Shown piece after piece: positions 21,186 through 51,500 of a stretch of 64,000 bases of DNA. Position 1 is the stretch's first letter; each line of letters opens with the position of its first letter. The stretch lies in contig JAZJZE010000011.1 of the NCBI GenBank assembly GCA_040390065.1, positions 64,001 to 128,000 on the forward strand. Reading direction: 5' to 3'. The translations under genes and the position numbers were made by a program. The DNA is from a bacterium (GTDB lineage: Archaea > Thermoplasmatota > E2 > JACPAO01 > JAHFTW01). A model generated the notes under the pieces. That model did no database searches. It saw only the letters and a list, made by a program, of their open reading frames with translations, and was not told the DNA's origin.

Positions 21186-22469
21186 TCAAGGGAGCCGGAT
21201 GACGGAGGGGCCGGGGTCGGCGGGTGCGTTCGAGCCAGTGCGCGGCGCCTGCGTGGACGGGAACTGCCGCGTTGCGGAGAGCGGGTTGGCGGCGACGATT
21301 CCCAGCCCCAGGGCCGCGTTCAGGTTGCTGGCCAGCAGGGTCTTGGGCGTGTTCAGGCTGCGGTGGACCCAGTAGCGGAAGGCCGCCAGGTGCCAGGAGT
21401 GGCCTTGGATGGTCGTGCGGACGTACGCCTCGATGGCGGCCTGCGCCGCGGCGCGCACCGCAGGGCTCACGCCGGGCCTCTCGAAGTAGTCCAAAAGCGG
21501 CTCGAACGGCTGGATCTGCTGCACGAAGGAGGTCCCGTTGCCAAGGTCGCCGAGCACGTACGCTCGATGAAACTCGCGCGTGAACGTCGTGGTCCATGCC
21601 TCAACCTCCGAGTTGTCGCCTTGCAGAATGCTGCCGGATCGCACGTGGCGGATGTGGTCCAGCTCGTGGTTGAGGACGATGCGGCCCCAGAGGAAGTTGT
21701 CCGGCTTCAGCGCCTTGGGGCCGAGTATGACGAAGTGGCTGAAACCGGTGGCGATGCTGCCCGTGCTACGTGTCCGGCCCGCCAGGTTGCGCCCCGCCTT
21801 TGCCTCCAGGTTCTCGTCGTAGTTCACGATGGGGTTGGCGAAGCTGTATCCGCTGAGCAAGCTCGTGTTGATGGCGGGGCTGCTGGCGGCCTGGGCGGTG
21901 ACGTCGTTGACGGTCACGTTGGACGCGACGACACCGGAGTTGGACGGGATGGCGGCCGCCTGCTGCAGGAGCGCCGCCATGGCGCCGGGGGTCACGGCAG
22001 CCGTGACTGCGTTCTGCCAGCCCACGGGTGCCGCGCTGGCCCCCGGCCCGTAGAATACCGTGGTTGGCTGCTGCGCGGGCGGAATCGCCTGCGCGGGCTG
22101 CGCCGCTTGCTTGCCCCTGAAGAAGCCAAAGGACCGGACGGGGGAGGTGGGGGCGACCTGCTGGCGGGACGTCCCCGCGTCACTGCCGTCGGAAGTGTCG
22201 GCCAAGCAGCCCGTGGCGCCGTTGCCGCGTATTGGGTTCAGCAGAGCGGCGTCGAGGGCGGTCCACGTCAAAGGGCCCACAATGCCGTCCACGACCAGGG
22301 ACTCGCCGGCCTGGAAGTCCCGCACCGCCTTCAACGTCTTTGGGCCGAAATCGCCGTCGGCAGCAAGCGGCGGTTGTGCTCCAGCAAGGTTGAGGTCATT
22401 CTGCAATTCGATGACGGACTGGCCCTTGGATCCTTGTCGAAGCATCGGCCTTGTGATTGCCTGCGGCAT
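21186..22469 (-). CDS. Peptidoglycan-binding domain (PG_binding_1) + HExxH metallopeptidase-like protein
   Basis: LRQGSKGQSVIELQ..DGDFGPKT..AVRDFQ..VDGIVGPLTW; VLNHELDHIRH..SEVEAW; no signal peptide. Confidence 0.85.
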   Translation of the reverse strand: MPQAITRPMLRQGSKGQSVIELQNDLNLAGAQPPLAADGDFGPKTLKAVRDFQAGESLVVDGIVGPLTWTALDAALLNPIRGNGATGCLADTSDGSDAGTSRQQVAPTSPVRSFGFFRGKQAAQPAQAIPPAQQPTTVFYGPGASAAPVGWQNAVTAAVTPGAMAALLQQAAAIPSNSGVVASNVTVNDVTAQAASSPAINTSLLSGYSFANPIVNYDENLEAKAGRNLAGRTRSTGSIATGFSHFVILGPKALKPDNFLWGRIVLNHELDHIRHVRSGSILQGDNSEVEAWTTTFTREFHRAYVLGDLGNGTSFVQQIQPFEPLLDYFERPGVSPAVRAAAQAAIEAYVRTTIQGHSWHLAAFRYWVHRSLNTPKTLLASNLNAALGLGIVAANPLSATRQFPSTQAPRTGSNAPADPGPSVIRLP

Positions 22470-22670
22470 GCCGCCGTGGACCGGCCCATGCAACATAATG
22501 GAGATTCACGCGACATGGGACCATCGCGTCGGCGGGCGGACGGCCAACGTCGAATCGCAATCGAAACAGGCGCGCGAGTATCCTTAGGACTCGCCGTGGC
22601 TGCCGCGCCTGCGCCACTACGGAAAGTCGCAGTAGGGCCTGTTCCCGTCGTGCGGCCCAGAAAATCATTA

Positions 22671-24452
22671 CTAGAACCTGAACGTGCCGAAGTGCGGTGT
22701 CACGCCCGGCACGAAGAAAAGGGACCACACGCCTCCAACGGCGGCCTGGCGGAAGCAAGTGACGACGCCCGCGCCGGCGTCCGCGTACATCTCGATTGAT
22801 GGGAAGATTGTGGTGAGGGGGCGGAAGTCCACTTGCCGACGGGCCAAGTCGATGATTAGGTTCCCCCGGATTGCGATGTCCGGCGATCCAAACACGCACG
22901 GGTCATTCGCCGTGGCATCGAAGAGAACGTCGTAACGCCGGGAAGATGGCAACGCGGGGCCGACGGTCGTCACGGCCGCGCTTGGCGCCGGCCTAGCGCT
23001 GCACTTGTACGCTCCCGTCCCGCAATCCACCTCGAAGGTTAGGTCGCCGTTTTCAGAGTGGCTTGCCGTGCCGGTGGAGGTGTCGAAGTCGATGAGGAAC
23101 CTCAGACGCGAGCTTGCCCCGATGGCTGGATTGAATGTGCGCTCGTCCGTTTCGAAGCATGAGTTCCAGTGCGGTCCTGGAAGTGGCGGCCCCTCGAAGA
23201 CCTGGCGGCCGGCGAACGGGCCTCCTCGCTGGATGTGGGCACCCGAAAGGGTGTTTGGGATGAAGGCGTGAAACCAGAACCTGATGTGGCGGGGAAGCGG
23301 CCGCGCTGCCGCGGCCGGAGTTGGAAGGGGCGCAGGAGTGTGGGTGGGGCGCGGCCCTTCGAAACTCACGGTTGCCCGCCGGTTCCTGCCCTCTACTCCG
23401 AACTGCGTCGTCTGACCGTGAACGAACCGTTCGATGGAGACGTTGGGAATGCCTTGCAGACCGCCCGCACGAGGTGATTGCAATGCTGCTACGACCGCCA
23501 AAGCCCTGCGGCAGGAGAGACGCCAGTTGTACTCCTGCGCCACGTGTTCATCGCGGCTGCCACGAAACCGTGTACTCGAGTAGGCGTGAACCTGAATCCG
23601 CGGCTGGTTCCCCGCGGCATGCCAGTTCCGAATCACTTGGTCGAGCGCATCGCGCCGAGCGTCATCCAACGAGTCCTCATCGTTGCCGAAAAGGGTTTCC
23701 AGGACGACGTTGGCAGGATCCTGGTTGGCGACCGGGCAACGCAGGTCGGCTGGCGGTCGGCCTGCCTGCTCGGGGAAAACTGGTCCTTGATGCGCCTGCC
23801 GATGAACTATCCATGGATTATCGGCACACGTTGCCGCCGTGCCCTGCTGGATTGTATGCACGAGTTCGTGCGCAAGAAGCCGTCGGCCTTGCGTCGTGGT
23901 CGGGTGATACGTCCCGGCAGCGAACGAGATGTCGTTTCCCACAGTGAAGGCATGCGCGGAGAACGACTCTGCTGCGGAGGCAGCCCTGGAATCCGTGTGG
24001 ATCCGGACGCCGGCGAAATCAGCGCCAAGCCGAGGCTCGAAGAAATCGCGTACGTCCTTCGGCAGCGGCGCCCCTGCGTTCGACGGCGCCACGGCGTAGC
24101 CGTCCGCCTCGAGTCGCGGCTCGCCAGCTGCGAATCGGTAAACGCCTTCCTCCTGGTCAGCACATGGTCCCTCTCCGGCGCAAGACGAGCAGCAGGAACG
24201 CTGAAGTGCGGAATTCGCGCCCGCCTGGTGCAGAACCGGCTGCTCATTGGTGGCCATCCGCATGACGCGGTCCGCCAGCATGTCGGCCTCCACCTCGGCG
24301 GCATCGTGCGGCTGGCTGACCTTCAGTTTGGCTTGCAGTCGCCGCAGGTTGAATTGGTTGCTCGCCCTCGGGTGGCAATGAGGGCGCGCGGCCGGGACTT
24401 CGGCGGGAGAGGTCGTTTGCGTGCGGTGGGACAGGCGTGCGGCCAGAGCCAT
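22671..24452 (-). CDS. DUF4157 (eCIS core) + OmpA-like peptidoglycan-binding + DUF3238-like C-terminal domain protein
   Basis: QAKLKVSQPHDAAEVEAD; FFEPRLGADFAGVRIHTD..AHAFTVGNDISF..GRRLLAHELVHTIQQ; YNWRLSCRRALAV..NRRATV; AFIP..SSR..FPSIEMY. Confidence 0.88.
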   Translation of the reverse strand: MALAARLSHRTQTTSPAEVPAARPHCHPRASNQFNLRRLQAKLKVSQPHDAAEVEADMLADRVMRMATNEQPVLHQAGANSALQRSCCSSCAGEGPCADQEEGVYRFAAGEPRLEADGYAVAPSNAGAPLPKDVRDFFEPRLGADFAGVRIHTDSRAASAAESFSAHAFTVGNDISFAAGTYHPTTTQGRRLLAHELVHTIQQGTAATCADNPWIVHRQAHQGPVFPEQAGRPPADLRCPVANQDPANVVLETLFGNDEDSLDDARRDALDQVIRNWHAAGNQPRIQVHAYSSTRFRGSRDEHVAQEYNWRLSCRRALAVVAALQSPRAGGLQGIPNVSIERFVHGQTTQFGVEGRNRRATVSFEGPRPTHTPAPLPTPAAAARPLPRHIRFWFHAFIPNTLSGAHIQRGGPFAGRQVFEGPPLPGPHWNSCFETDERTFNPAIGASSRLRFLIDFDTSTGTASHSENGDLTFEVDCGTGAYKCSARPAPSAAVTTVGPALPSSRRYDVLFDATANDPCVFGSPDIAIRGNLIIDLARRQVDFRPLTTIFPSIEMYADAGAGVVTCFRQAAVGGVWSLFFVPGVTPHFGTFRF

Positions 24453-24900: not shown

Positions 24901-25455
24901 ATGGACGGGCCCGCTTGGAACCCCTTGAAAAGGAAGCGAGACGGCGCGGCGACCCGGGCCCGCCTTCAGGGTATTGTTCAAGAGCGGCCCGGCCTGAGCC
25001 TGAGTCGACTTGCATGTTTGGGTGGGGTTGCATGGCACACAGCTCGGTATCATCTACAGATTATGCAGGAACAAGGATTGCTGACCATCGAGAAGGGCCG
25101 GTGGGACAGCCGCATCTATCTCAGCTCCATCCCAACGGCGGAACGGCCATGGCGCCGCGCCCTACATGAAGACCGGACACGTCTCATCCTGAGCGCACTC
25201 TCAAGCCAGTCAGCGGCCGGTGTGCGTGATATCAGCGTGGCCGTCGGCTTGAGCAGGAAGATTGTCCGCAACCAGGTCAAACGCCTCGTCCAAGACGGGG
25301 TGGTCGCTACCAGCGGCGGCGCCCGTCCGCGCTTCTGGGCCACCGCCGCGGCCCACCGGGGCGCAGGCGGCGAGTCGCACACCGATGTTGCGCCGCCAAC
25401 CTCCGGGCAGCCCTTGGCGGAAATCACGCCGCTGCAACCCACCCTGCCGGTCTAG
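24901..25455 (+). CDS. Tandem winged helix-turn-helix transcriptional regulator (archaeal type)
   Basis: RARLQGIVQERPGLSLSRL..TARYHLQIMQEQGLL and RTRLILSAL..VRDISVAVGLSRKIVRNQVKRLVQDGVV; start approximate. Confidence 0.8.
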   Translation: MDGPAWNPLKRKRDGAATRARLQGIVQERPGLSLSRLACLGGVAWHTARYHLQIMQEQGLLTIEKGRWDSRIYLSSIPTAERPWRRALHEDRTRLILSALSSQSAAGVRDISVAVGLSRKIVRNQVKRLVQDGVVATSGGARPRFWATAAAHRGAGGESHTDVAPPTSGQPLAEITPLQPTLPV

Positions 25456-28400
25456 GCCTCGTGGAGCAGAATCCAACGGGCTGCATGGCCGCCCTCGCGG
25501 CCGCAAGGGGGGAATGTCTCGCCGCGGCTCAGCGGAATCGTGTTCTCCGGATGGGCGCTGCACTGGTAGACGCCGCTGAGACGGTTTTTCTTCCCAGTGG
25601 TTCCCGGCTCCGCTACGAGCGCGACCTGGCCTTGGTCGCCACCCAAGGGGGATTCTGTCGTGGGCGCATCTGCCCACTCTGTGTCTTGGCGGGCTTCCCC
25701 TTGCGCCGTGTTGATTGCGACTACGGGGGGCCAACCAGGCCGAACCTCGAGGCCAAGAGGGTCGGAACCAGCGGGAGGCGGCCCTCCGACGCCAACCTGG
25801 AAAAACTCGGTGCGGCCAGGCTGGCACCGCACGCGTGTTGCGGTCCTGTGCCGGACGGGCACATTCTTTCCTTCGCCGGCGCCCTGAACCGCCAAGCGCA
25901 CGGTTGGCCAGAAAATGCCATACGCCGGGCCGTCGAAGGCGAACCGGAACGCGCCGTCCGGCCCCGTGACCATGGACCGCCGCCAAGCGCGACTCCATGC
26001 GCACCACCACGGTGCATCAGGCTGAACTTGAACGCCCGCAACCGGCTGGCCGGCAGGGTCCACGACGCGGCCAGCAAGGGTGCACGAACGGGAAGCGACC
26101 GATGCAATTGGCATCCCCTCGACGGCCTCAAGCGCGGGCCCGAGTTCGGCGTCCTGCCTCGTCGTGCCCTGGGCCGCGGCCCATGCGGTCACCAGGGCCT
26201 GTAGTTCCGCCAGCACCGTCGGCTCGGAGGACGCCCAGTCTCCGAGCGGCGTCTGCAGCCCAAGGCCGGAAGCGGCGGCCGCGGACATTGGCATCGCGGC
26301 GCCCGATGCCGCCTTCGCGATGAGGCGGGCGGCCGTGGTTGGAACGGGGCCTTCACTGGCCACCACGTTTGCCGACTCCGACACGATAGACGCCACGGCG
26401 ATGAGTTGCCCTTCCGTGGGGCCTGCACCGGCGACGCGGAACGTGTTACCTTGGACGATGACTGCCGTCGGCGTCACACAGGCCACCGCGCTTGCGCCTC
26501 CGGAGCCGCACACGACGTCGTTACCGCAGAACCGGATGTCACCGGAGGCACCGCCCGTCGCGGGCGCGGCGCCTTCCACGTGAACCGCGAGGTGCGAGGA
26601 AGGCGTGGCCGTCAGGGCGGGCCAGAGCGGATCGGTGCCGGCATTGTGGAGGTAGGCGGCTGCGCCGACGATGGGCGTCGAATGGTCTGGGCCGCGTGCG
26701 TCGAGGGAGTTTCGCTCGACGCGGAGGCGGCCAATCGCTGTGACGACGAGCGCTGGGCCAGCCGGGCACGTGAAGCGGTTTCCTTCGACGAGCGCCGCGT
26801 CCGCGGCGGCTTCGGCCGTTCCCGAGGCGAACGCCCCGAGCACGTGCACGGCCGCTTGCCCGGGCTGCCCGACGTCGGCGGTGCCGTTGCCGGCCACCTC
26901 GTTCGCTAGTAGTTGCAGTCGCGTGCATCCGCGGATGGCTACGCCCTGCATGGGTCCGCCTGCTGGTCCTCCGTTGCCCACGATGCGGTTGCCGCGCAAC
27001 GCAAGGCCGGCCACGCGGGTGGCGCGGATGGCGCAACGTGGTTCGCCGTCCGGCCGCGGCGCGCGTGCGCAGTCCGTGACGACGTTATCAACGAGCTCGA
27101 CTTTCTCGATAGTGGCGAGGTCCTTGTCGGATCCGACCACGATGCCCTCCAGGGCGAAGCCGCGGATTCGGTTGCCATGGAGCCTGACCTCGACCGTTCC
27201 CGCCGAAGCTTGGCCCGGCTGCGGCATGCCGCCGACGGAGATGCCGGGACCGGAACCTCCCGACAACTCGCTGTCGGCGACGGCGACGCTTCGTGAGCCC
27301 CCTGTAATCCAGATGCCTCCGCCGTCCAAGTGGCAAGCGGCGAGGGAGACCCCGGCCGCGCCCTCGCTGCGCACGAGGACCGCTGCCTCGCCGCGGACGG
27401 TCAGGCGCGAAAGGCGTGCACCCGCTCCCCGCAACACGAGGGCCGATTGCCCCGGGTACGCCTGGATGACCGTGCGACCGGCCTGGCCTTCGATGGTGAC
27501 GTTAGGCTGGTCGACGATTACGGGGCCATCGAGGCGGTGGATGCCAGCGAGTACGCGCACCGTGCTGCCTTCGCCGGCGGCGCGCACGGCATCCTCGAGG
27601 CGACCATAGTTACCGAAGGACGACACTCCATCCCCGACCGTCAGGATGCCGGCCTCGCTGCGGGAGACGGCCGGCGAAAAGAAGGACCGGACGTCTTTGA
27701 CGCGCCATGTGACCCCACCTCTTGCTGCCGGGCTCCACTCGAGAGCGGCCAACGGGGCGGTGGCGTGCCGCACGCCCTGCGGCGGGGCCCGCTGCAGGAT
27801 GTCAATGGTGGCAGTTGCCGTACGTGTCGCGAATGTCCAGTAGTCGCCGCTTACGAGGCAGGTCCCTTCGATCTTCGGCTCGATGTCGCCCTCTAGGAAG
27901 CCGTGGCCTCCGGCCGGGAAGCAGGCCGGCCCGGAACTGGCCCACCGGCGAAGGCGCAGCCGTGAGGGTGATTCCGCGCCGGCATCTGGCCGCGTTTTCA
28001 CTGGCGGGTCCAGCACGACCCGCCGGCCGCGAATCTCGATGTCTGCAATGCGGTGGAGTGTGCCTGGCTCGCCAGCCATCTCCTGCGCGACACTTTGCAG
28101 TTCCACCGCGTCGTTGACGCGCAGGGCGAGGGGAGCATCCTGGGCCCACGGGTCGAGCACCACGGCGCCGCCCGCTTCCGCGTCGACGGTCGCGACGCTG
28201 TACGCCACCGAGGCGTTGTCACGCGCCCACTTCCACGTTGCGACGCGCCGGACGCGCCGAGCAGCCCCGACGTCGGGGAGGCTGCGATCAAGTTGCAGAG
28301 TCGTGCCGCGGCCATCAACGCCCACGACCTGCGCTAATGCCCCCGGCTGGCCCGCCGCTTCTGTGTCTGCGCCGTATACCTCGACCCACTGGCCCACTTG

Positions 28401-38707: not shown

Positions 38708-39381
38708 TGGGGAAGCACCCCCGCGACGTACCTGGTGCCATCGGAGGAGTACGGCTGGCCGGCCACAATCTCCCGGTTGCGCACGTGGCCGCGGAAGGCC
38801 AAATGGCCAATCCCTTGGGCGGCAAGCTCGCGACCGCTGAGCATCTCGAGGTTCAAGGAGACCTCCACGAGGAGGGGGTTGAAGCGGGCGTCATGGAGTG
38901 TCTCCTCGGCCGCAACGTCCAAGACCTTCACTGGAACGACGCGGTTCGGCCCCAGGACGAGCAGGACGAGGGGCACGTGGAAGGCAAACGGGTTGACGTG
39001 CCCCTGGGAGGCTTCGGACCTGGCGCGCTCTAGTTCGTCGCTCGACGGAGACACGAGCATCTGTAATCGCGCCAGTGCGGGCAGCATCCCGAAACGCGAG
39101 ACGCCGTCCCCGTTGTTCGATGTCTCTTTCAGCTCCGCGGCGTCGAGGCGGATGCGCAGGCTGATGGTCTCGGACGGAGGGCCGGCCACGCGCAGGGAGT
39201 CCTGCGGCGACTCCTGCGATCCAGCGGAGTCGTTGCGTCGGACCGACCAACTGACGGTGTCCGGATTGTATTGGAACGGCATGACCGTGGGCGGGGTGCC
39301 TGGCTTGTCGACCACGTACGTGACGAGGGCACCCTTGACGAGGGCAAGGTGCTTTGGGGAGTCCACGGACATTGGGGACAT
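38704..39381 (-). CDS. CIS tube-initiator / tube-like protein
   Basis: KGALV..FQYNPDTVS..GPPSETISLRIRLDA..LVLGPNRVVPV..EETLHDARFNP. Confidence 0.8.
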   Translation of the reverse strand: MSPMSVDSPKHLALVKGALVTYVVDKPGTPPTVMPFQYNPDTVSWSVRRNDSAGSQESPQDSLRVAGPPSETISLRIRLDAAELKETSNNGDGVSRFGMLPALARLQMLVSPSSDELERARSEASQGHVNPFAFHVPLVLLVLGPNRVVPVKVLDVAAEETLHDARFNPLLVEVSLNLEMLSGRELAAQGIGHLAFRGHVRNREIVAGQPYSSDGTRYVAGVLPQ

Positions 39382-39563
39382 CACGTCCCTCCACGCTGGC
39401 GGCGGCCGGCGCTCAGTACGGACGTTGTAACGGCGTGCGTGATGGCCGCCCTGGCGTGGGTGGGCCCGCCGTCGCGCAGGGCCGACGCAACCGCCTTTGC
39501 CACCGCGCGCTGCATGTCGCTCTTGCCCGCCCCGTAGGCCACCCGGATTTGGCCGATGCGCAC
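39381..39563 (-). CDS. Small hypothetical eCIS protein (60 aa)
   Basis: Fills the gap between ATPase and tube initiator; its TGA overlaps the next ATG. Confidence 0.55.
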   Translation of the reverse strand: MRIGQIRVAYGAGKSDMQRAVAKAVASALRDGGPTHARAAITHAVTTSVLSAGRRQRGGT

Positions 39564-44381: not shown

Positions 44382-45235
44382 GGCCGACCTCCTTCCATCC
44401 CTTGTCCGTGCAACAAGGCCAAGTACGACTCCCGGCGCCCAGGGGGCATTGCCAGGATGTCGCGCTCCGCCCAATGGTAATGCAAGGCAATCTCATGCAC
44501 TTGGGTTTGCAGCAGGCGGGCGCGTTGCCGCATCTCGCCTAGTACGTAGGCGCCCGCGTCCAACAGCGCCAGGCTCTCACCGCCGCAGGCAGGGCAGGAA
44601 ATCCCCACCATAGTCTCGGCCTGCGGATCCTCGGTAGCCATTGCGTCAGCTAGATGCGCAAGTCTGCGCCTCCCCCGAGCGCCCTGGAAGGAAGGAACCC
44701 GCCCCCCTTTGCCCGGGACGATGCATCGTCGCGCGATTTCCAGGGCTGCCCGCTGAGGGTCATGGCGGGCCACGGCGGCAACCGCCTCCTGATCCTCACC
44801 GGTTGGAAGCCGGAATTCCATGACGGGAAGGCTGTTGCGCCGTGTGCGAAGCGGCGGCGCGGCAACGGTCTTTGTCGATAGGAGCTGCATCGCGTCAATC
44901 TCGACGTCGATGGCTTGGCCACACGTCGGCTGCGGACACTCGACCTTGCTCTGAACCAAGGAGCCGCAGGCCAGGATGCGCAGGCGCAGCAGGAGTGCCT
45001 CCCGGTCGCCGACCGTCAGCCGACTTGCTATTGCCGGCGTGACCGGGGCGACATCGCCGATGCGAACGACGCAACGGGCAAGGAATCCCGACACCTGGCG
45101 CGCCATGGGAAGTCCGGCCACGTCCTGCGCGTACACTTCGTCGAGACCGCTGGGGGCGACGATGCTTGCGGTCCGATGGCACGTCTCGTCGACCCACAGG
45201 CCGGCGGGCAGCGTGACCGCCTCGATGCGCGTCAT
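44378..45235 (-). CDS. T4 gp26-like baseplate/tail assembly protein with Cys pairs and DUF6760-like end
   Basis: LTVGDREALLL..CPQPTCG..FRLPTGEDQ..DPQAE..CPACG..VHEIALHYHWAERDILAM. Confidence 0.8.
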   Translation of the reverse strand: MTRIEAVTLPAGLWVDETCHRTASIVAPSGLDEVYAQDVAGLPMARQVSGFLARCVVRIGDVAPVTPAIASRLTVGDREALLLRLRILACGSLVQSKVECPQPTCGQAIDVEIDAMQLLSTKTVAAPPLRTRRNSLPVMEFRLPTGEDQEAVAAVARHDPQRAALEIARRCIVPGKGGRVPSFQGARGRRRLAHLADAMATEDPQAETMVGISCPACGGESLALLDAGAYVLGEMRQRARLLQTQVHEIALHYHWAERDILAMPPGRRESYLALLHGQGMEGGRP

Positions 45236-45237
45236 GG

Positions 45238-45783
45238 TCAGTTGGCGGGCTCGGCGTACGACGTCTCGTCAGGCTGGCCGACGGTGTAGTCGCGCTCCCA
45301 TCCTTCGTTCTCGAGCTTGATGGTCGAGATGAGAACGGCGTTGCCACTCGCATCCAAGTCGGCCGTGGCTTGGTACTCGGACACCCAGCAACGGTAGACC
45401 ACGTATGACACGACTTTCTGGCCGGACTCGTTGAAGATATCGATGATGATGTCCTTTCGGAAGTCCTTCAATGACACTTCCTTGCCGCCGTCCGTGTCGC
45501 CGGCCATCGGTCCGCCGTAGTTCCATACCTTGTTGGCCCACTGCTCGAAGTCGATGTCATGCGTTACGCCCCGCTCCAGCGTGATGGCTTCGTACTTGGT
45601 CTGGCCTGGCGTTCGGCGCGCACTGCTCGGATCCGCGCCCTCACGCCAGTCGATGGCTTCCGTGTGACGCTTGAGTGCACCAACCTTGTGGACACCGGCG
45701 ACGTACTTTCCGTCCCACTTGACGCGGAACTTGAAGTTCTTGTATGGGTCGAAGCGCTTTGATTCCGCGGTGAATTGTGCCAT
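45238..45783 (-). CDS. Phage tail tube protein (T4 gp19-like)
   Basis: RFDPYKNFKFRVKWDG..REGADP..PGQTKYEAITLERGVTHD..YRCWVSEY..LENEGWERD; AAGGAGG RBS. Confidence 0.95.
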   Translation of the reverse strand: MAQFTAESKRFDPYKNFKFRVKWDGKYVAGVHKVGALKRHTEAIDWREGADPSSARRTPGQTKYEAITLERGVTHDIDFEQWANKVWNYGGPMAGDTDGGKEVSLKDFRKDIIIDIFNESGQKVVSYVVYRCWVSEYQATADLDASGNAVLISTIKLENEGWERDYTVGQPDETSYAEPAN

Positions 45784-45794: not shown

Positions 45795-47366
45795 TTAGGT
45801 ATTCTCCTGGTGCGTGTATTGGCTGATCTTGATCACGACGAATTCGGCCGGCTTGAGCGGCGCGAAGCCGACGAGAATGTTGACGATGCCGCGGTCGATG
45901 TCCTCTTGCGGGTTCACCTCGGCGTCGCACTTGACGAAGTACGCTTCGTTGGGCGACGCCCCCTGGAATGCTCCCTGCCGGAACAGGCCATGCATGAATG
46001 TGCCGACGTTGAGGCGGATCTGGGACCACAGCGGCTCGTCGTTTGGCTCGAATACGACCCACTGCGTGCCTCGGTAGAGGCTCTCCTCGATGTAGAGGGC
46101 GGTGCGCCGTACGGGGAGGTACTTCCACTGGTCGGCCAGCTGGTCACGGCCGACGGTGGTGCGGGCTCCCCAAAGGACGGTGCCGGTTGCCGGGAAGGTT
46201 CGGAAGCAGTTCAGGCCAAGCTGGTTTAGCTCCCCTTGTTCCATGTCGGTGAGAGTCGTCGCAATGCCGCTGGCTCCGCGCAGGCGGGCGTCCTGACCGG
46301 CCGGAGCCTTCCAAATGCCTCGGCTAGCGTCGGTGCTGGCGATGATGCCCGCGACCGCGCCGCACGGCGGGAACTCGGCCTCGCGGTTGTCCCGGAGGGG
46401 GTCGGGTGCCTTGATTCGTGGGAAGTAGGCTGCAGCGTCCCTGGTGAGCGTAAAGGCGGGCTTCGGAGTGCCGAGCAGGCCGTCCTTGGCGGTCTTCTTG
46501 TCGTTCCACGGGGCGTCGATGAGGAGGATTGCGCGCCGCTTGCCGCAGTACGTCGCTGCATCGTCCCAGTCTTTTGACGCCAGGGCCACTTCTGCGTTTC
46601 CGCGGGGCAAGCAGAGCAGGTTGAAGATGTCGAGTTTGTCGAGGGCATAGACGCCCGTCGGACTTGCTGCGCCTCCAGGCAAGCCAATAAGGGAGACCGT
46701 GATGTCCACATCTTTCCCCTTGGACAGGCGCTTGTAGGTCGGCACGGCCGGCGGGTTGGCGGGTTTCGGCACGGCGAATTTCTTGGCGGTGTTCCATGTT
46801 GGAACGTCCACAAGGTTGGACTCGTCGTGGAGTACGGCCGGTGCAAAGCGAGGATCCGTGGGCTCGCCGGAAAGGTTGGCGAAGACCTCCTCCCGGAGGA
46901 CCGTCGGTGCTTTTGCCGGGTTGCCCCCGGACGCAATTTCCTGCACATGGAGACTGAAGCGCGGTTGGCCTTGTGGCTGGTCGTGTGGCGGACCCGAGGG
47001 TTCCATCGCAATCTGGAGTTGGTTTCCCCAAGTGCCAGGGCTTCGGGCCTCCACGGGGAAGGCGAACAATGTGGCTTCCGCCGCCGCCGCGCCCGTTTTG
47101 CCGTCGTCGCCGCGACGCACGATGGCGGCCTCGGAGCCGCCGTTCTGGAAGAACTGGTAGACAGCGTGGCCCATGGCCGAGTCGAGGGCCAGGCCGCCAA
47201 AGATTCGCTGGTACTCGCCAAAGTTGTTGACGATTGTCGGTTCTTCAATCGGTCCGCGGGGTGCGAAGCCTACGAAGGCGGTGCGGGAGGTCGCGACGCC
47301 CATGATCGTGCGTACCGGGCTTTCCGTTTCCACGACGTAGACGCCGGGATAGGTCAGTTGCTGCAT
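45795..47366 (-). CDS. Phage tail sheath protein
   Basis: TYPGVYVVE..TAFVG..GIWKAPAG..WGART..WKYLPVRR..WVVFEPNDEPLW..GFAPLKPAEFVVIKI. Confidence 0.96.
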   Translation of the reverse strand: MQQLTYPGVYVVETESPVRTIMGVATSRTAFVGFAPRGPIEEPTIVNNFGEYQRIFGGLALDSAMGHAVYQFFQNGGSEAAIVRRGDDGKTGAAAAEATLFAFPVEARSPGTWGNQLQIAMEPSGPPHDQPQGQPRFSLHVQEIASGGNPAKAPTVLREEVFANLSGEPTDPRFAPAVLHDESNLVDVPTWNTAKKFAVPKPANPPAVPTYKRLSKGKDVDITVSLIGLPGGAASPTGVYALDKLDIFNLLCLPRGNAEVALASKDWDDAATYCGKRRAILLIDAPWNDKKTAKDGLLGTPKPAFTLTRDAAAYFPRIKAPDPLRDNREAEFPPCGAVAGIIASTDASRGIWKAPAGQDARLRGASGIATTLTDMEQGELNQLGLNCFRTFPATGTVLWGARTTVGRDQLADQWKYLPVRRTALYIEESLYRGTQWVVFEPNDEPLWSQIRLNVGTFMHGLFRQGAFQGASPNEAYFVKCDAEVNPQEDIDRGIVNILVGFAPLKPAEFVVIKISQYTHQENT

Positions 47367-47594
47367 TGAAACACATCCGCGCCGCCGTGATGGCTGGCGA
47401 CGCGGCGCAGAAAGCCCTGCGGTATTTGGTGGCTTCTCACGAAACGATGGCACAATGCAGCTAGCGGCGGGCGATTGTTCCCACTTCGCGCAAGAAGGAT
47501 TCATTTGCGTCCGTGGCGGGGTCGGGGGACGCAAGCAAGGAAGTTCCCATGTTGCGCGAATTCCGATTATCTTGCCCTGTCGTTTCGTCTGCGC

Positions 47595-48488
47595 ATGCCT
47601 GAGGCTGTGTTGAGGCCGACGCTGCGGCGGGGGTCAAAGGGCCCCTCTGTGACTGAACTCCAAGACGCGCTTAACGGGGCGGGTGCGCAGCCTCCGCTTG
47701 TGCCCGATGGGGACTTCGGTCCCAAGACGTTGGACGCCGTGCTGGCGTTCCAGACGCAGCGGGGACTCGTGGTCGATGGAATCGTTGGCCCCCAGACATG
47801 GGCGGCCCTGGACGGGTCGACTGCGCCGGCGCCACCGACCCCCGTACCGATGCCGCCGAGTCCCATGACCGCTGACTGGACGGTCGTTCCGGCAGACGGC
47901 CGCATGCTCTACGCAATGGAGATTCTCGTGAACGCCTACGGCTATCCGGTCAATGGTGCAGCGGGGCTCGTCGGGAACCTCCACGCAGAATCAGGCGTAA
48001 TCCCGAACCGCCTTGAGGGGAGCCAGGCGGCCTCGCCGATGCGGGCACCCGACTTCGTCGGCCGGCCGGCTGACTTCACGGCCGACCAGGTCATGAACCG
48101 CAACGGCCCAGGGCAACGGGGACCCCGGCTCCCCGGCGTTGGTCTCGCGCAGTGGACGTCAGCCAACCGCCGCGCCGGCCTGTTCGGCCATGCGTTTCGT
48201 GGCATCGTCCTCGGGTCGTCCATTGTCTTCGACATGGATGCGCAGCTGGATTACCTGGTCAATGAACTCGGCGGCTCGTTTGTAGGCGTCAACCAAGTCA
48301 TCCGCAACCCCACCATCGCCGTGGATGCGGCCAGCGACGAAGTCGTGTACCGGTTCGAAGTGCCAGGGGCAGTGCTGGCCAACGGGGCCCTTCTTCCACG
48401 CACGGATCCACGGGTGCAGGCCGTATTCGCGCAGCGCCTGGCGTCGTCCCAGGCTGCGCTCCGGGCGTACCGTGCCGTTCACCCGTGA
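47595..48488 (+). CDS. Peptidoglycan-binding domain + phage tail-tip lysozyme (Phage_lysozyme2-like)
   Basis: LRRGSKGPSVTELQ..DGDFGPKT..VDGIVGPQTW; GAAGLVGNLHAESG..GVGLAQWT..RR..QLDYLVNEL; no signal peptide. Confidence 0.88.
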   Translation: MPEAVLRPTLRRGSKGPSVTELQDALNGAGAQPPLVPDGDFGPKTLDAVLAFQTQRGLVVDGIVGPQTWAALDGSTAPAPPTPVPMPPSPMTADWTVVPADGRMLYAMEILVNAYGYPVNGAAGLVGNLHAESGVIPNRLEGSQAASPMRAPDFVGRPADFTADQVMNRNGPGQRGPRLPGVGLAQWTSANRRAGLFGHAFRGIVLGSSIVFDMDAQLDYLVNELGGSFVGVNQVIRNPTIAVDAASDEVVYRFEVPGAVLANGALLPRTDPRVQAVFAQRLASSQAALRAYRAVHP

Positions 48489-48818
48489 ATGGTCGGTCGA
48501 CGACGAGCCAATCGGGAAACTTGGGGGCCGTGGAGGTTCCTTGCCCGGCGCGGGCGGCGCGCCGCCTCCAAAACGTCACACCACGTAGCGCCGGGCCGGC
48601 CGCGATTCGGCACCAGCGACACACGCGGGCTGGGTGTGGCAGGTTGGCTCTCTTCATTTCATCGTCGGCGCTTGCCCAGGCCCGCAACCCTGACCCCTTC
48701 TTGGTTTCAATCCCGTCTGGAGCGTGGGCGGCCGTGGGTCGGCCCATGTCTCGTGAAAAACGTACTTGCGGCGCCTATGCGTGGCATACTTGTGTCACGT
48801 GCAAAGGGCTCGACCGGT

Positions 48819-49331
48819 GTGTCTGAACAACAGAAAATGCTGACCGATGCAGAGGCTTGGATTGCGTGCTTTTACTTCGAGCAATACGTGGTTGCGGGTT
48901 ACGAGCCCCAGATGTTGCCAGCGGGTTTTGTCCGAGCCAGTGCCCTTCAGCTTCTGGAAGGCGTCGCGGCGATGACGCCAGTGCAGTTCGCCGCACTTCG
49001 CGAGGCGCCCAGTCGCTGGCAAAATTATCTCGCCACGTGGCCAGGATTGTCGATGGAGCAACGCGGGCAGGTGCGGGCGGCCTGGAGCGAACGGTGCGGC
49101 TTGGCGGCCTCCAGCGTCGGCACAGCAACGGCGTTGCCTCCGCCGGCGCCAGTCCAGGATCGCGCGCAACGGATCCTTCAGGAAATTCGGGAAGCCGAGG
49201 CGCGCGGCGACCATGCGCGGGCCCGCGCAATTGGGGAAAAATTCGCCGTGGAGAGCCGCGCCCAGCATGTCGGGCACATGAACCTGATGGCGACAATTGC
49301 CAACCCATTGAACCCAACGCGCTACATCTGA
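48819..49331 (+). CDS. Hypothetical protein (~170 aa)
   Basis: 3' part of ORF 48489..49331 has globular helical composition from the GTG at 48819. Confidence 0.6.
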   Translation: MSEQQKMLTDAEAWIACFYFEQYVVAGYEPQMLPAGFVRASALQLLEGVAAMTPVQFAALREAPSRWQNYLATWPGLSMEQRGQVRAAWSERCGLAASSVGTATALPPPAPVQDRAQRILQEIREAEARGDHARARAIGEKFAVESRAQHVGHMNLMATIANPLNPTRYI

Positions 49332-49469
49332 CGGCGGCCAACTTGGTCTCCAAGAACCCTGCTAGAGAACCTATTCTGGCCGGCAAGGACGTCCGCAGCT
49401 TCGACCTTCGCCTGGGTAGCGACCGGCGCACCCGTCTCTCGTGAGAATCGCCTTTGTACCGGCCGGAGA

Positions 49470-51500
49470 ATGGCCGCAGCCGGCCTCACTATGCCATTCG
49501 AAAGGGCCGCACTCCGACGTGGCTCCGACCCAGCGACGACTGGCAACCACCGTGCTGCGGATGCTCGCCGGCGGCCTGGAATAAGCAACCGGCTCGAGCA
49601 GGACCGGCTTCTCCGGACAGCGGACACGCCTGTCCAAGTCTTGCGTCAATCGTCGCCGCCGACGCCGCAGCCAGGCGAAGAGGAAGCGCAGGCAGAAGTA
49701 CCTCGGACCGTAGCGACGCAAGCGTACGCGACGGACACGGAGGCATCCAATGCCCTGGCCAGGGGCGAAGAAGAGAACGCAGCTCAAGCTCTTCAGAACC
49801 TCCTTGCGGACGCCGACCACCCGGCCGAACTTGAGCGCCTGGCTCGCCACTACCGATACCGGGGCATGATGCTCCGGGGCGCCATAGGCTTGTTGCGCGA
49901 ACTCGCGTTCTGGAGGCAGAACCTACCTGAAAGGCGTCGTCAAGCCTGGAAAATTCTCAACGACCGGGGCCATCAACTTGGTCGACTTCCCATTGCAAAC
50001 CCCGCCGATGAGCTGCTCGACTTGTTGCAGGATCCGGCGGCGCAGGAGCGGGTCCGGCAAGCGACCCAAGTGCGCCGAACCGGGACGGCCGTCCCTCCCG
50101 GCCCCGCCAGGCCGCCCTCCACGTCCGAGCTTGCGCGCATCGCAGCTGCGCGCCGCGACATGCGCGCCGACCTCCTTGGAAGAATGGAGTTCGTGGCCGG
50201 ACGGCGCACTTCCTTGCCGCGGCCCGTCGGCAATCAGCGGCACCACCGAACGCATGACGGCCACGGACCCCGACGCGATGCCCCGGGAGCCGGCTGGACG
50301 ACCCCATGGGTCGATCTCCCGCTCCCGTCGACGGAGGCACAGGGCGCCCGCGACAGGGCTTGGCGTGCGCTCGAGAGGACGGCGGCCGAAAATATTCGAA
50401 CGGACGTCAACGTTTCGATCCTGGAAGCTGACACCGAAGTACGCAGGGTGATGGAAGACCTGCATTGGGACTCTTCCGATTGGCGCTACCGCCTCATCGT
50501 CCAATACTCCGGCGTCCGATACCAATCCGCACACGGAAGTTACCTCTCGCCCAGTCACCTGCTCGATGTGCTCCAGCACACCGAAGCCGGCACCCTTACC
50601 GAGCGGCCGGCACCGAGGCAGCCCCTCGAGGAGGTGGCCCTCGTCAATCCATCTCGGGACGAGGCGGTCGCGGAATTGCGGCGCCTGCGGGCACGCGGCG
50701 CGTTTTCGGATGCCGCCTGGCGAGACATCTTGCTGCGTGGCCATCTGGTTCCTCGCCCCGAGGACCGCCCAGCAATCCAATTGGCGGCTCCTGTGGAGCC
50801 TGCATGGTCCGCGGTCTTCATGCGGTGGGCGCAGGGCCAGACGACGCAGTGGCTGGCCGCGGTCCAGGCAAGCGGGCCCGGTACGATTGTGCTACCGACC
50901 GTCGTTTGCAACCAACTTGCCGAAATCGCACAGAGCTTCAGGGGCAATCAGCTAAGTGGGGGAATCACTGGGGATGCGCGGGACTATGCCGGGCGTGGCC
51001 TGCTCATGCCCGGACGGATGGCACGTCTTGAACCACGCACTTCCGGTCATGGCGTCTTCTTCGTGCACCCGGAATGGCTGGTGGATCGGCCCCCAAGCTA
51101 CTCAGTCGTACTGCTCCCGCCGTCAATATCGTTTGCCAATCTACGTGAGCCGAACGGCGCGGGCGAGCCGGCGGTGCAAAAACCCGGGTGGACGATTGTG
51201 CGCGATGACGGGCCCGTACGCCGGACCAGACTCGGGCCTTCTGGACTAGAAACGGAATGGGCTGCCTGGGCCCACGAAGCAACGGTGCTGGAAGTCATGC
51301 CGACCGGCGTCCTGCTGATGGAGACCACCGATCGGGCCCCGCTGCCCGGCCAGCCGACGCCCAGCGCAGGCGTCACCATGCGAAGCCAAGCCACATTGGC
51401 GGAGTTCAATTCCTATATCGGCTTCGCGGACCCCGCCGTGATCCGACGAGCCAGGAGGCGCCGGCGGTCGCCCGGAGGAGCTCACCGACGAAGTCAGTAA
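49470..51500 (+). CDS. Hypothetical protein (676 aa), candidate eCIS-associated effector
   Basis: Long ORF, disordered Arg/Pro N-terminus, YSGVRYQSAHGSY segment, no signal peptide. Confidence 0.7.
   Translation: MAAAGLTMPFERAALRRGSDPATTGNHRAADARRRPGISNRLEQDRLLRTADTPVQVLRQSSPPTPQPGEEEAQAEVPRTVATQAYATDTEASNALARGEEENAAQALQNLLADADHPAELERLARHYRYRGMMLRGAIGLLRELAFWRQNLPERRRQAWKILNDRGHQLGRLPIANPADELLDLLQDPAAQERVRQATQVRRTGTAVPPGPARPPSTSELARIAAARRDMRADLLGRMEFVAGRRTSLPRPVGNQRHHRTHDGHGPRRDAPGAGWTTPWVDLPLPSTEAQGARDRAWRALERTAAENIRTDVNVSILEADTEVRRVMEDLHWDSSDWRYRLIVQYSGVRYQSAHGSYLSPSHLLDVLQHTEAGTLTERPAPRQPLEEVALVNPSRDEAVAELRRLRARGAFSDAAWRDILLRGHLVPRPEDRPAIQLAAPVEPAWSAVFMRWAQGQTTQWLAAVQASGPGTIVLPTVVCNQLAEIAQSFRGNQLSGGITGDARDYAGRGLLMPGRMARLEPRTSGHGVFFVHPEWLVDRPPSYSVVLLPPSISFANLREPNGAGEPAVQKPGWTIVRDDGPVRRTRLGPSGLETEWAAWAHEATVLEVMPTGVLLMETTDRAPLPGQPTPSAGVTMRSQATLAEFNSYIGFADPAVIRRARRRRRSPGGAHRRSQ

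Follow-up and report, generated by a model that had tools for sequence, protein, structure and literature searches.

An intact eCIS locus with candidate peptidoglycan-directed cargo in a wall-less Thermoplasmata archaeon

An archaeon that makes no peptidoglycan carries an intact extracellular contractile injection system (eCIS), and the genes at the two ends of this system encode proteins with peptidoglycan-type binding modules. What would such a cell do with them? The best reading, to which we give slightly better than an even chance, is that of a lineage-II-type eCIS, borne on a tRNA-Val island of a wall-less member of the Thermoplasmata and aimed at bacteria. The locus thereby offers a concrete case, open to test, of what may be a weapon of archaea against bacteria.

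The host and its island

The host is archaeal, as an earlier note on this DNA had supposed, and belongs to the class Thermoplasmata: the SSU rRNA of its genome is archaeal (1451 bits), the LSU rRNA is archaeal too, and both flanks of the island on contig C11 keep their gene order in 12 of 12 same-genus genomes. It makes no peptidoglycan. Neither a PBP transpeptidase nor a SEDS gene was found in the genome (89% complete), and the single Mur_ligase_M match (42 bits) has its counterpart in control archaea that are free of peptidoglycan, in keeping with the lack of wall synthesis on which the note had built. Could the contig be chimeric, which the note had named as a ground for dropping its proposal? 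As far as can be tested, it is a product of neither faulty binning nor faulty assembly: beside the synteny, an independent assembly of run X1 gives one contig covering positions ~19006-51940 of the window (the whole stretch of 64,000 nucleotides that was analysed), with a depth of 12.8 against 12.2 for the contig that runs from the island's right end into the adjoining core genome.

The eCIS locus lies inside an island of ~92 kb integrated at tRNA-Val. An exact direct repeat of 22 bp, found by script, bounds it: the right-hand copy (62084-62105, plus strand) marks the right edge and has the same sequence as the 3' end of tRNA-Val(GAC), C11:34047-34068; synteny within the genus ends at this tRNA and picks up again at ~62355. 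A tyrosine integrase belongs to the island (59092-60492, plus strand; Pfam Phage_integrase, E 4e-14), which also encodes an RHS toxin and a subtilase. The GC3 of the eCIS genes is 0.73-0.81, that of five of six sampled core genes 0.88-0.90 and that of the sixth 0.71. This lower GC3, together with a lysozyme domain that only this genome has among 197 of the class, marks the block as foreign, and it could be a recent import that is not in use. No RNA runs holding the eCIS locus were found.

The injection machinery

Positions 21186-48488 of the window hold an intact, headless, lineage-II-type eCIS, which spans ~27 kb and at least 18 ORFs free of stops and frameshifts. Its operon lies on the minus strand, with all the component genes described in this section, and runs from 47366 down to 25452. 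It opens with the contractile sheath (45795-47366; Pfam Phage_sheath_1 and Phage_sheath_1C; start taken at M57 of the longest ORF) and a gp19-type tail tube (45238-45783; Pfam E 1e-42), followed by a conserved eCIS protein with a T4_baseplate match (44378-45235; Pfam E 5e-8) that recurs in 72 of 88 related loci. A Pro/Ala-rich ORF (42873-44380) is a candidate tape measure by its position; it has no family match and no tblastn match in the related loci. Then come an Afp16/Pvc16-like tail terminator, or cap, with a TIG domain (41662-42870; Pfam Pvc16_N, E 4e-38) and an Afp15-like AAA+ ATPase with a winged-helix domain (39569 to ~41660, the start being approximate; Pfam AAA E 8e-26, WHD E 2.5e-13), the latter found in 60 of the 88 loci. 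The product of 38704-39384, to which no role is assigned, matches no family in profile scans and is nevertheless a conserved eCIS protein, with tblastn homologues in 22 of the 88 loci, including that of the same-genus genome G007 (related locus L090 coincides with G007:C1).

The baseplate half of the operon encodes a gpD/VgrG-like hub (37323-38414; Phage_GPD, Pfam E 5e-9), a gpV OB-fold spike (36712-37326; Phage_base_V E 5e-25), a possible DUF4280/PAAR-like tip (36380-36712; DUF4280 E 0.033, below the cut-off), a gp25-like wedge (36001-36378; Pfam GPW_gp25, E 2e-14) and two Baseplate_J proteins of the gp6/Afp11 kind (31218-33602 and 33602-36004; Pfam E 1e-18 and 1.6e-5). The next gene (29147 to ~31246) encodes a baseplate protein that is Afp12-like by position, with weak matches to Mu gp48 and phage tail domains (E 0.0018 in Pfam, E 0.002 for TIGR02242; neither reaches its cut-off) and a homologue in the G007 locus. 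Last is a tail fibre or receptor-binding protein (25452-29150; Pfam), composed of an N-terminal DUF6519, a right-handed beta-helix and a CarboxypepD_reg-like domain; DUF6519 is described as the eBAP5 baseplate-attachment domain of eCIS fibres (PMC12923769). The system is headless as judged on the capsid, portal and terminase families tested: Phage_capsid and Phage_portal match nowhere in the host genome, and its sole Terminase_6N match sits on a different contig (C34). A Kyte-Doolittle scan found no transmembrane-like segment in any protein of the locus. The earlier note was thus right to describe a complete and uninterrupted headless contractile-tail operon. The range that it gave, 21186-51500, may be too wide at its right end; ORFs 48489-49331 and 49470-51500 match nothing in profile scans and so are not assigned to the eCIS.

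Where does the machine come from? Genome contigs yielded 595 confirmed relatives of the sheath, which is 42-52% identical to eCIS sheaths from many bacterial phyla and falls within a bacterial radiation in the sheath tree; the trees require at least two to three separate origins for archaeal sheaths. Even the nearest sheath shares only ~50% identity, so that there is no sign of a recent donor.

Three accessory proteins at the ends of the locus

The three bracketing genes were found where the note had placed them, and it was also correct that none of the products has a signal peptide, since neither inspection nor the Kyte-Doolittle scan revealed an N-terminal hydrophobic stretch. They are accessory and not core genes, with 0 matches in the 88 related loci. 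Accessory protein 1 (21186-22469, minus strand; 427 aa) has an N-terminal PG_binding_1 domain (PGBD; E 1e-14), a low-complexity linker and a C-terminal domain of ~290 aa with an HExxH...E motif (HELDH), whose invariant residues are H268, E269, H272 and E288. The family of this domain has 70 cluster representatives among 1.84e9 proteins. DUF4157 is present in 22 of 34 aligned members, and accessory protein 1 is the only one of the 34 with a PGBD. The AF2 model of the domain (pLDDT >90) has no PDB fold match at E<1. The binding module and the HExxH motif of the note are present, but its peptidase acting on peptidoglycan is putative: that label comes from the PGBD and not from the HExxH domain, whose family is small and has no assigned substrate.

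Accessory protein 2 (22671-24452, minus strand; 593 aa) is itself a DUF4157 protein (eCIS_core/DUF4157, E 2e-30) and probably carries an OmpA-like peptidoglycan-binding domain. The OmpA match lies below the Pfam cut-off (24.5 vs 27.2 bits); there are weak YfiB/Pal matches in NCBIfam, the only PDB sequence matches are to YfiB (E 0.2-0.6), and the motif NWRLSCRRALAVVAAL is present. The protein ends in a C-domain of ~210 aa without assigned function, which has 10 homologues (47-65% identity), most of them with DUF4157, OmpA or PGBD.

Accessory protein 3 (47595-48488, plus strand; 297 aa) consists of an N-terminal PG_binding_1 (E 3e-17) followed by a tail-tip lysozyme (Phage_lysozyme2, E 4e-13), and its gene is divergent from that of the sheath across a spacer of 228 bp. 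The AF2 model (pLDDT 92.4) retrieved with Foldseek the PGBD and muramidase endolysins 5nm7, 3bkh and 7rum as well as the lysozyme domain of phi29 gp13 (TM 0.64 on target). The lysozyme retains 73 of 75 highly conserved columns, E132-S133 among them, and judging from these columns and the predicted endolysin-like fold it has not decayed. It is the only one of the three that is recognisable as a peptidoglycan hydrolase. Its 355 homologues include bacterial proteins with 55-69% identity among the best listed, and 8 of the best 120 have DUF4157. Among 80 metagenome loci of such lysozymes, DUF4157 adjoins or is fused in eight, one of which (L160) also has a sheath and an AAA ATPase; the other 72 have no eCIS link in the available flanks, 59 of the 80 contigs being shorter than 8 kb. 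None of 80 related eCIS loci has a lysozyme homologue within 10 kb of the sheath. The order of N-terminal PGBD and muramidase is that of Gram-negative-phage endolysins, so in a bacterial donor the protein could have been a release lysin.

Only two PG_binding_1 domains occur in the whole host genome, and they stand at opposite ends of the eCIS. Both proteins start with MP(Q/E)A..RP.LR.GSKG, which confirms the start codons that the note had used, and the two domains are identical at 52 of 75 positions, a closer match than either gives with ~190 other proteins compared. Their coding segments share 66% identity in DNA vs 69% in protein, which indicates an old duplication with both copies kept. Across the class, 6 of 197 genomes encode PG_binding_1, and only the host has it together with a sheath; the related eCIS of G007 has no peptidoglycan-related domain.

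A possible attack on bacteria, and other explanations

How could the parts work together? We infer an expressed system, in which the minus-strand operon would build a sheath-tube-baseplate particle in the cytoplasm, assisted by the AAA ATPase and the Pvc16 cap. The PGBD-lysozyme, the PGBD-HExxH protein and the DUF4157-OmpA-like-C-domain protein, all lacking secretion signals, would be the payload, leaving in or with the particle upon lysis of some producer cells. The DUF6519/beta-helix fibre may attach to a bacterial surface glycan, contraction would push the spike across the envelope, and the peptidoglycan-binding modules would retain the enzymes at the wall, where the muramidase would cleave the glycan chains, with the other two domains acting on some wall or periplasmic substrate. 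The catalytic modules of the accessory proteins occur fused to DUF4157 in bacteria, which fits cargo. The note's claim of cargo aimed at bacteria is partly supported: the archaeal host and the eCIS are borne out, the DUF4157 fusions agree with it, and the lysozyme is the one recognisable hydrolase. In favour of this reading stand also the complete core set without capsid or portal, the absence of PBP and SEDS genes, the accessory genes missing from the 88 related loci, the two PGBDs at the eCIS ends, the undecayed lysozyme, the baseplate-attachment domain of the fibre, the lack of transmembrane-like segments and the independent assembly in one contig. Several of the findings above weigh against an antibacterial role: the RNA runs without the locus, the lysozyme in one of 197 genomes, the lower GC3 and the endolysin architecture; the 80 loci without a lysozyme near the sheath and the 72 of 80 lysozyme relatives without an eCIS link; and the unmatched HExxH fold, the sub-cut-off OmpA domain and the G007 eCIS devoid of peptidoglycan-related domains.

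Is the locus instead a passenger? A bacterial eCIS block may have arrived with its accessories, directly or via other archaea, and at least its peptidoglycan-directed genes may lie unused and not yet decayed; in the donor, the PGBD-lysozyme would have been the release endolysin and the others anti-bacterial toxins. We consider this unlikely. It would account for the lone lysozyme domain and its bacterial relatives, the GC3, the place of the sheath among bacterial ones with several archaeal origins, the endolysin-like architecture and the missing RNA runs, but fits poorly with ~27 kb of uninterrupted ORFs, the conserved lysozyme positions, the preserved HExxH...E motif, the old PGBD duplication with both copies retained and the distant nearest sheath. 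A host without a wall would have no use for a release endolysin; the gene is nonetheless kept beside the sheath promoter region. Rather more doubtful is a weapons island in which the PGBD enzymes, freed by lysis of the producer or exported along some unrecognised path, attack bacterial walls from outside, not loaded into particles, while the eCIS injects something else or has other targets. Archaea are known to secrete peptidoglycan hydrolases with which they kill bacteria (PMC12352652, PMC12356512), the RHS toxin and subtilase would suit such an island, and so would the 72 PGBD-lysozyme relatives without an eCIS link. However, the enzymes have neither signal peptide nor transmembrane segment, the genome has no PGBDs but the two at the eCIS ends, catalytic modules of all three proteins recur fused to the eCIS marker DUF4157, and accessory protein 2 carries this marker itself.

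The particle could also bear the PGBD-lysozyme as a structural tail lysin, opening peptidoglycan for the spike as T4 gp5 or phi29 gp13 do, and not as a toxin; the target would still be bacterial. The phage tail lysozyme family, the phi29 gp13 fold match and a gene that adjoins the sheath and not the cargo end agree with this. We think it very unlikely, as no spike or baseplate protein is fused to the lysozyme, the binding modules found in its homologues are variable and free-standing, and the enzyme is missing from the 80 related eCIS loci and G007, so the machine works without it. Hardly any credence goes to a system aimed at archaea or eukaryotes, with PGBD and OmpA-like modules that bind another polymer. 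The characterised archaeal CIS does kill other archaea (PMC11566945) and binding domains can be promiscuous, as with LysM and chitin (PMC12352652), but here three separate peptidoglycan-type binding modules and a muramidase fold share one locus, and the homologues are bacterial proteins named peptidoglycan hydrolases or OmpA-like.

Comparison with known systems

The locus shares with the Afp/PVC-type lineage II eCIS a core of sheath, gp19 tube, gpD/gpV, gp25, Baseplate_J, Pvc16_N, AAA ATPase and DUF4157, as well as accessory genes at the locus edges; its two Baseplate_J copies and no recognisable Afp14 fit some lineage-II subtypes in the surveys of Chen et al. 2019 (PMC6899500) and of Geller et al. 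2021 (PMC8213781). Unlike the surveyed systems, its host belongs to the Thermoplasmata: the same two surveys report 10 and 19 archaeal loci, from one archaeal phylum, and no published link of a CIS to this class was found besides one sheath in a structural survey. Archaeal eCIS, bacterial peptidoglycan-hydrolase eCIS toxins and the idea of signal-less hydrolases delivered by an archaeal CIS are already in print (PMC8213781, PMC12352652), so the novelty that the earlier note saw shrinks to the locus-level case and the lineage, for neither of which a precedent was found in print.

Among the bacterial toxins, the pesticin-like EAT10 of Pseudoalteromonas luteoviolacea is 10^4-fold more toxic in the periplasm of E. 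coli than in its cytoplasm (PMC8213781). As described there, it is, like the window lysozyme, a muralytic enzyme without signal peptide in an eCIS locus. The families differ (Phage_lysozyme2 here, pesticin in EAT10), though DUF4157 fusions of the former occur in bacteria, and the N-terminal module is a PGBD in place of the DUF4157 of the bacterial eCIS peptidoglycan-hydrolase toxins. A producer without peptidoglycan would need no immunity protein and could not use the enzyme on itself. In its domain order, accessory protein 3 resembles phiKZ gp144, the AP3 endolysin and LysT84 (N-terminal PG_binding_1, C-terminal lysozyme-like domain), and its best PDB sequence and fold matches are such endolysins of Gram-negative phages; unlike these, its catalytic domain is of the tail-lysozyme family (phi29 gp13 type) and its setting is without phage, holin or producer wall.

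Thermoplasmatota are among the phyla richer in archaeal peptidoglycan hydrolases (PMC12352652). Woldo and Danwoldo (Strock et al. 2025, PMC12352652) likewise join peptidoglycan-binding and catalytic domains, are of bacterial origin and patchy in distribution, but have Tat signals and are secreted free, whereas the window proteins lack signals and sit at the eCIS ends. The same paper describes a weak genome-level enrichment of signal-less hydrolases in sheath-encoding archaeal genomes (P = 0.059) and states that bacterial targeting by archaeal CIS remains to be tested. The T6SS-like CIS of Halogeometricum borinquense (clade IIa; PMC11566945) is also archaeal, derived from bacteria and used for antagonism; a conserved membrane protein anchors it in the cell envelope, and it kills other archaea on contact. 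The window locus, in contrast, has no transmembrane-like segment, and it combines a DUF6519 fibre with accessory proteins that point to bacterial walls.

The operon and the particle it encodes

What kind of particle does the locus encode? Pfam scans of the long ORFs revealed a continuous, minus-strand tail operon, and every reading frame of the locus is uninterrupted. It opens with the sheath (45795-47366; Phage_sheath_1 and Phage_sheath_1C, with the start at M57 of the ORF), followed by the gp19 tube (45238-45783; Phage_T4_gp19, E 1e-42), a T4_baseplate-like protein (44378-45235), a Pro/Ala-rich ORF (42873-~44380), a Pvc16_N/DUF4255 cap protein (41662-42870; E 4e-38) and an Afp15-like AAA+WHD ATPase (39569-~41660; AAA E 8e-26). 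Next come a conserved protein with no assigned function (38704-39384), the Phage_GPD hub (gpD/VgrG-like, Afp8; 37323-38414), the Phage_base_V spike (gpV OB; 36712-37326), a weakly matched DUF4280-like (PAAR-like) tip (36380-36712; E 0.033), gp25 (36001-36378), two Baseplate_J (Afp11) genes (33602-36004 and 31218-33602), a weakly matched gp48-like protein (29147-~31246) and a fibre of 1232 aa built from DUF6519, a beta-helix and CarboxypepD_reg (25452-29150). Downstream of the fibre lies a DUF4157 protein (22671-24452; eCIS_core E 2e-30) and, at the downstream end, a protein joining a PG_binding_1 domain (PGBD, above cut-off) to an HExxH domain (21186-22469). On the upstream side, a PGBD-lysozyme (47595-48488; PG_binding_1, again above cut-off, and Phage_lysozyme2) is divergent from the sheath gene across 228 bp. 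The earlier note had drawn the tail operon and its three bracketing genes from the sequence alone, and its coordinates hold in the scans and the ORF reading down to the start codons.

The component genes expected of an Afp/PVC-like extracellular contractile injection system (eCIS) are present: sheath and gp19 tube, the baseplate and spike set, the Pvc16_N cap, the Afp15-like AAA ATPase and DUF4157. DUF6519 is described in PMC12923769 as eBAP5, the domain that attaches eCIS fibres to the baseplate, and the two Baseplate_J copies agree with some of the lineage-II subtypes described in PMC6899500. A crude hydropathy scan found no transmembrane-like segment in the locus proteins. Together with the fibre this is at most an indirect hint that the particle may be set free rather than being membrane-anchored (T6SS-like) or cytoplasmic. 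Could this be the tail of a prophage instead? The check covered three families: Phage_capsid (PF05065) and Phage_portal (PF04860) have no match anywhere in the genome (89% complete), and the only match to Terminase_6N (PF03237) is on another contig (C34:40281-40910, minus strand). With no match to these three families in the locus, a prophage tail was rejected. The C34 terminase probably marks a provirus of its own, with no connection to the eCIS.

Host and contig integrity

The source genome (2.68 Mb in 50 contigs, 67% GC, 0.3% contaminated) carries on contig C1 an archaeal SSU rRNA (1451 bits over the whole model), a tRNA and an archaeal LSU. The contig bearing the eCIS, C11, encodes archaeal-type LonB, SucCD and UvrA. 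On the right, the 20 kb beyond the window is collinear with 12 of 12 same-genus genomes at 65-85% nucleotide identity, and so is C11:20001-34070. Judging from these sequences, C11 is archaeal DNA of the same lineage as its genus. The genus belongs to the Thermoplasmata, in line with the Thermoplasmatota-like host proposed earlier. The LonB-type ORF (1164 aa, C11:21959-25453, minus strand; positions 1959-5453 of the extracted stretch L011) matches AAA in two pieces, 547-598 and ~746-833, and the split could reflect an inserted element such as an intein.

Is the contig nevertheless chimeric? Sequencing run X1, assembled separately (Logan), contains a contig of 32,935 nt, at depth 12.8, that spans window ~19006-51940 with zero differences, covering the whole eCIS together with 2 kb to its left. 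Since X1 may itself derive from the source sample, the second assembly is independent at the level of the assembler only. A second X1 contig (34,019 nt, depth 12.2) covers 53504-64000 and beyond, and so takes in the island's right end and core genome. The interval between them, 51.9-53.5 kb, is covered by short pieces, the assembly breaking there because of a repeat. The ORF at 51257-53200 (plus strand) is cysteine-rich (20 Cys) with one hydrophobic segment, and its DNA has paralogous copies at C1:359737-360715 (86% identity) and C1:152563-153408 (68%); this is the repeat that breaks the X1 assembly. Two-sided synteny with the genus, the single X1 contig and the matching depths (12.8 vs 12.2) speak against a chimeric or mis-binned contig, and this reading was rejected.

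Does the producer have a wall of its own? Family searches of the genome found no PBP transpeptidase and no SEDS (FtsW/RodA) protein, families that each matched 10 of 14 control genomes, all 10 of them bacterial. Mur_ligase_M has one weak match (42 bits), and two of the control archaea, Methanocaldococcus and Haloferax, match this family as well. Given the absence of PBP and SEDS matches in the 89%-complete genome, a role of the accessory proteins in self-lysis or wall remodelling was rejected; self-lysis had been argued against before on the grounds of lineage.

The integrated island

Synteny with the genus ends exactly at a tRNA-Val(GAC) gene (C11:33996-34069) and returns at an ABC-2 transporter gene (window ~62355) in 11 of the 12 genomes. 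The last 22 bases of the tRNA recur as an exact direct repeat at window 62084-62105, and a tyrosine integrase lies at 59092-60492. Together these place the eCIS within an integrated island of ~92 kb (C11:34047-126105, up to window 62105), absent from the 12 same-genus genomes. In one of them, G006, a single contig carries the ABC-2 gene ~630 bp from the left-flank gene. The twelfth, G004, matches instead the gene at 60741-62045 and part of the integrase, beside the same core neighbourhood, so that the site looks like an integration hot spot. Within the genus, C11:40001-60000 has no match in any genome and window 1-20000 has one short match only, in G004.

Without the eCIS the island has a GC content of 0.633; the eCIS itself has 0.675, and the remaining contig 0.675-0.678. 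GC3 is 0.73-0.81 in most eCIS genes and 0.88-0.90 in five of six sampled core genes (0.71 in the sixth). On these figures the eCIS block is foreign and incompletely ameliorated.

The eCIS shares the island with an RHS-repeat protein (2824 aa, window 9522-17996, plus strand) that contains fn3, DUF6531 and DUF6443-like regions and whose C-terminal ~330 aa matches no family; the protein resembles a polymorphic toxin, here in an archaeon. Beside it are small ORFs at 17990-19089, and a stretch of DNA with 65% identity is present at C2:11356-12251. Also on the island are a subtilase, a haloarchaeal-type HTH regulator, a SLATT protein and a weak TIR-like protein. The SLATT gene (a SLATT_3+SLATT_1 two-transmembrane effector) adjoins an ORF that weakly matches CAP12/Pycsar TIR (E 0.0016) at window 53574-55774 (minus strand), possibly a defence pair. 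The left part of the island contains short repeats, 79-92% identical and oriented both ways (C11:48419-48651, 55761-56061 and 60760-61116).

Origin and spread of the machine

Searching genome contigs with a sheath profile gave at least 600 pattern matches, at least 595 of them confirmed; the best 80 of these come from bacteria of many phyla and two archaea, with best-segment identities of 39-62%. In a quick maximum-likelihood tree of 82 rows (one 206-aa fragment excluded), the window sheath pairs with a Bathyarchaeota row (SH-aLRT 92, rising to 99 when the long branch of genome G029 is removed and the partial sheath of G022 added). The sheaths of G022 and of the same-genus genome G007 fall elsewhere among bacteria, and the four archaeal rows imply three changes on the tree, at least two of them forced by well-supported branches. 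Of the 197 genomes of the class, 8 have sheath domains. Tree and distribution thus describe an ordinary, horizontally mobile eCIS of lineage-II type. G007 carries a complete eCIS of its own with a DUF4157 protein of 1285 aa in mid-operon (L103:14006-17863 and L104:9935-14968, two stretches of its contig C1, cover this protein and the fibre), and no peptidoglycan-related domain was found in it. The G007 fibre has 1677 aa (DUF6519/beta-helix/NosD-like), and the locus sits at a different genomic site, beside Mrr and Eco57I-type restriction genes.

Three accessory proteins

The PGBD-lysozyme is the clearest of the three. Phage_lysozyme2 scores 50 bits against a cut-off of 28.2, and this protein alone of the three has what PMC12352652 defines as a modular hydrolase, a binding domain joined to a muralytic catalytic domain with its catalytic residue present. 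The AF2 model (pLDDT 92.4) matches the PGBD-muramidase endolysins 5nm7, 3bkh and 7rum and the lysozyme domain of phi29 gp13. A search with the lysozyme part gave 355 homologues at E<=1e-3, the best 120 at 54-69% identity; those with a named source are called 'phage tail tip lysozyme' and come from Actinomycetota, Chloroflexota, Bacteroidota and a cyanobacterium. Across 32 homologues, 75 columns reach 90% conservation or more, and the protein keeps 73 of them, including the invariant E132-S133. Partner domains vary among the best 120 of the 355 (PGBD in ~43, DUF4157 in 8, also hemopexin, LGFP and LysM). In 80 metagenome loci with lysozyme relatives (21 of at least 8 kb), DUF4157 is fused or adjacent in 8 and an AAA ATPase occurs in 2; L160 is the sole locus among the 80 with sheath, ATPase and DUF4157. 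A single genome of the 197 in the class has Phage_lysozyme2.

The PGBD-HExxH protein consists of PG_binding_1, a linker and a domain of ~290 aa. A word-based search with this domain found 2 homologues, both with N-terminal DUF4157, and an exhaustive search of 1.84e9 proteins found 70 cluster representatives at E<=1e-3. DUF4157 is carried by 22 of 34 aligned family members, PGBD by the window's protein only, and H268, E269, H272 and E288 are invariant in the alignment. The domain model is confident (pLDDT >90), and Foldseek found no PDB match to it at E<1. Neither Pfam, NCBIfam nor the fold search gave a muralytic family for the catalytic domain. Membership of Peptidase M91 (PF14891, NleD-like effector zinc proteases) was rejected: the window protein has no match and two homologues only reach 17.6 and 20 bits, below the cut-off of 25. 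What the domain shares with M91 is HExxH with a downstream invariant Glu, and nothing more.

In the third protein DUF4157 comes first, followed by a probable OmpA-like domain and a C-domain at the end. The OmpA family PF00691 scores 24.5 bits against a cut-off of 27.2; a precomputed table lists it for this protein. NCBIfam YfiB/Pal matches are weak, and the PDB matches, all YfiB, are non-significant. The segment NWRLSCRRALAVVAAL agrees with NX2LSX2RAX2VX3L, a signature of the OmpA/MotB family. Ten homologues of the C-domain share 47-65% identity with it, most having DUF4157, OmpA or PG_binding_1 as well. Atlas searches with the C-domain and with the ORF at 49470-51500 gave no usable match, and an NCBIfam scan added nothing beyond the PGBD matches. 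Lying at the locus edge, downstream of the fibre, the protein has the eCIS-associated toxin architecture of PMC8213781, in which DUF4157 stands at the N-terminus and an effector domain at the C-terminus.

How do these genes relate to the machine? The genome has exactly two PG_binding_1 domains, both in the eCIS-flanking proteins, identical at 52 of 75 positions in protein and 159 of 240 in DNA; no PGBD from ~190 other proteins fetched, a set biased to lysozyme homologues, comes as close to either. Both PGBD proteins lack DUF4157, which their catalytic modules carry in other organisms. In the class, PG_binding_1 occurs in 6 of 197 genomes, and together with a sheath in this genome only. A PG_binding_1 fragment is also seen in a same-genus genome (G010:C287:1-96, on a contig of 663 nt). 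The three accessory genes and the ORFs at 48489-53200 have no tblastn match in 88 related loci (the best 80 sheath-bearing loci and eight stretches of G007, G029 and G022), whose 10-kb flanks miss the far end of most operons. No RNA run is listed as containing the locus.

What is the system for?

On the most economical reading, the locus is an eCIS directed against bacteria, with the three accessory proteins as its payload. The proteins have no use on the producer's own envelope, carry no export signal and sit at the operon ends, and all three are built from modules that bacteria join to the eCIS cargo marker. The cargo would be loaded, released by lysis of the producer's cell with the particle, brought to the target by fibre binding and set to attack the wall. 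The main rival holds that the peptidoglycan-directed genes came as passengers with a foreign block and go unused, and it draws on a lysozyme unique within the class, on the lower GC3 of the eCIS compared with core genes and on the endolysin-like architecture. Against it speak the 27 kb kept intact, the conserved catalytic positions and an old PGBD duplication retained on two different enzymes. Alternatively, the proteins could be bacteriolysins that act free, their release unconnected to the particle; the lysozyme could be a structural tail lysin; or the target could be something other than peptidoglycan. What the earlier note observed stands, and its interpretation is supported in part.

The payload reading can be pushed further. 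This would be the first concrete cross-domain injection weapon, with a wall-less archaeon firing a phage-tail-like particle at bacteria; PGBD would replace the N-terminal DUF4157 of bacterial toxin modules, duplicated onto two enzymes to hold injected cargo on the target wall, and the HExxH domain would be a new fold, a metalloenzyme directed at wall or periplasm. We put this forward tentatively, as less likely than not.

Relation to known systems

Do archaea actively attack bacteria, and with what? To our knowledge, the sole characterised archaeal contractile injection system (CIS) kills archaea, and the sole characterised archaeal anti-bacterial proteins are secreted enzymes. The former is a haloarchaeal T6SS-like CIS (PMC11566945). 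Archaeal eCIS are reported as 10 loci in PMC6899500 and from 19 archaea of one phylum in PMC8213781, which also describes EAT10, a validated eCIS peptidoglycan-hydrolase toxin, from a bacterium. According to PMC12352652, peptidoglycan hydrolases (PGHs) occur in ~5% of archaeal genomes, Thermoplasmatota prominent among them; signal-less hydrolases are 'somewhat enriched (P = 0.059)' where the genome has a sheath domain, and a CIS 'can in principle deliver PGHs', while the targeting of bacteria by archaeal CIS 'remains to be tested'. Such a locus was not found in the papers searched that mention both contractile injection and Thermoplasmat*; this genome or comparable loci may appear in S2 Table of PMC12352652 or in the eCIStem data of PMC8213781. 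The present locus turns the P = 0.059 hint into a defined, clonable test case, in which an entire machine and a fibre come with three candidate cargo proteins and the producer lacks the target polymer, so that self-directed roles are excluded. It adds a small new HExxH family whose fold is predicted with confidence and has no solved relative, and shows that an eCIS can travel on an archaeal tRNA-integrated island alongside an RHS toxin. Compared with known systems the chassis is ordinary and the host unusual; what appears to be new is a locus-level case for a cross-domain, wall-directed payload, previously a matter of conjecture.
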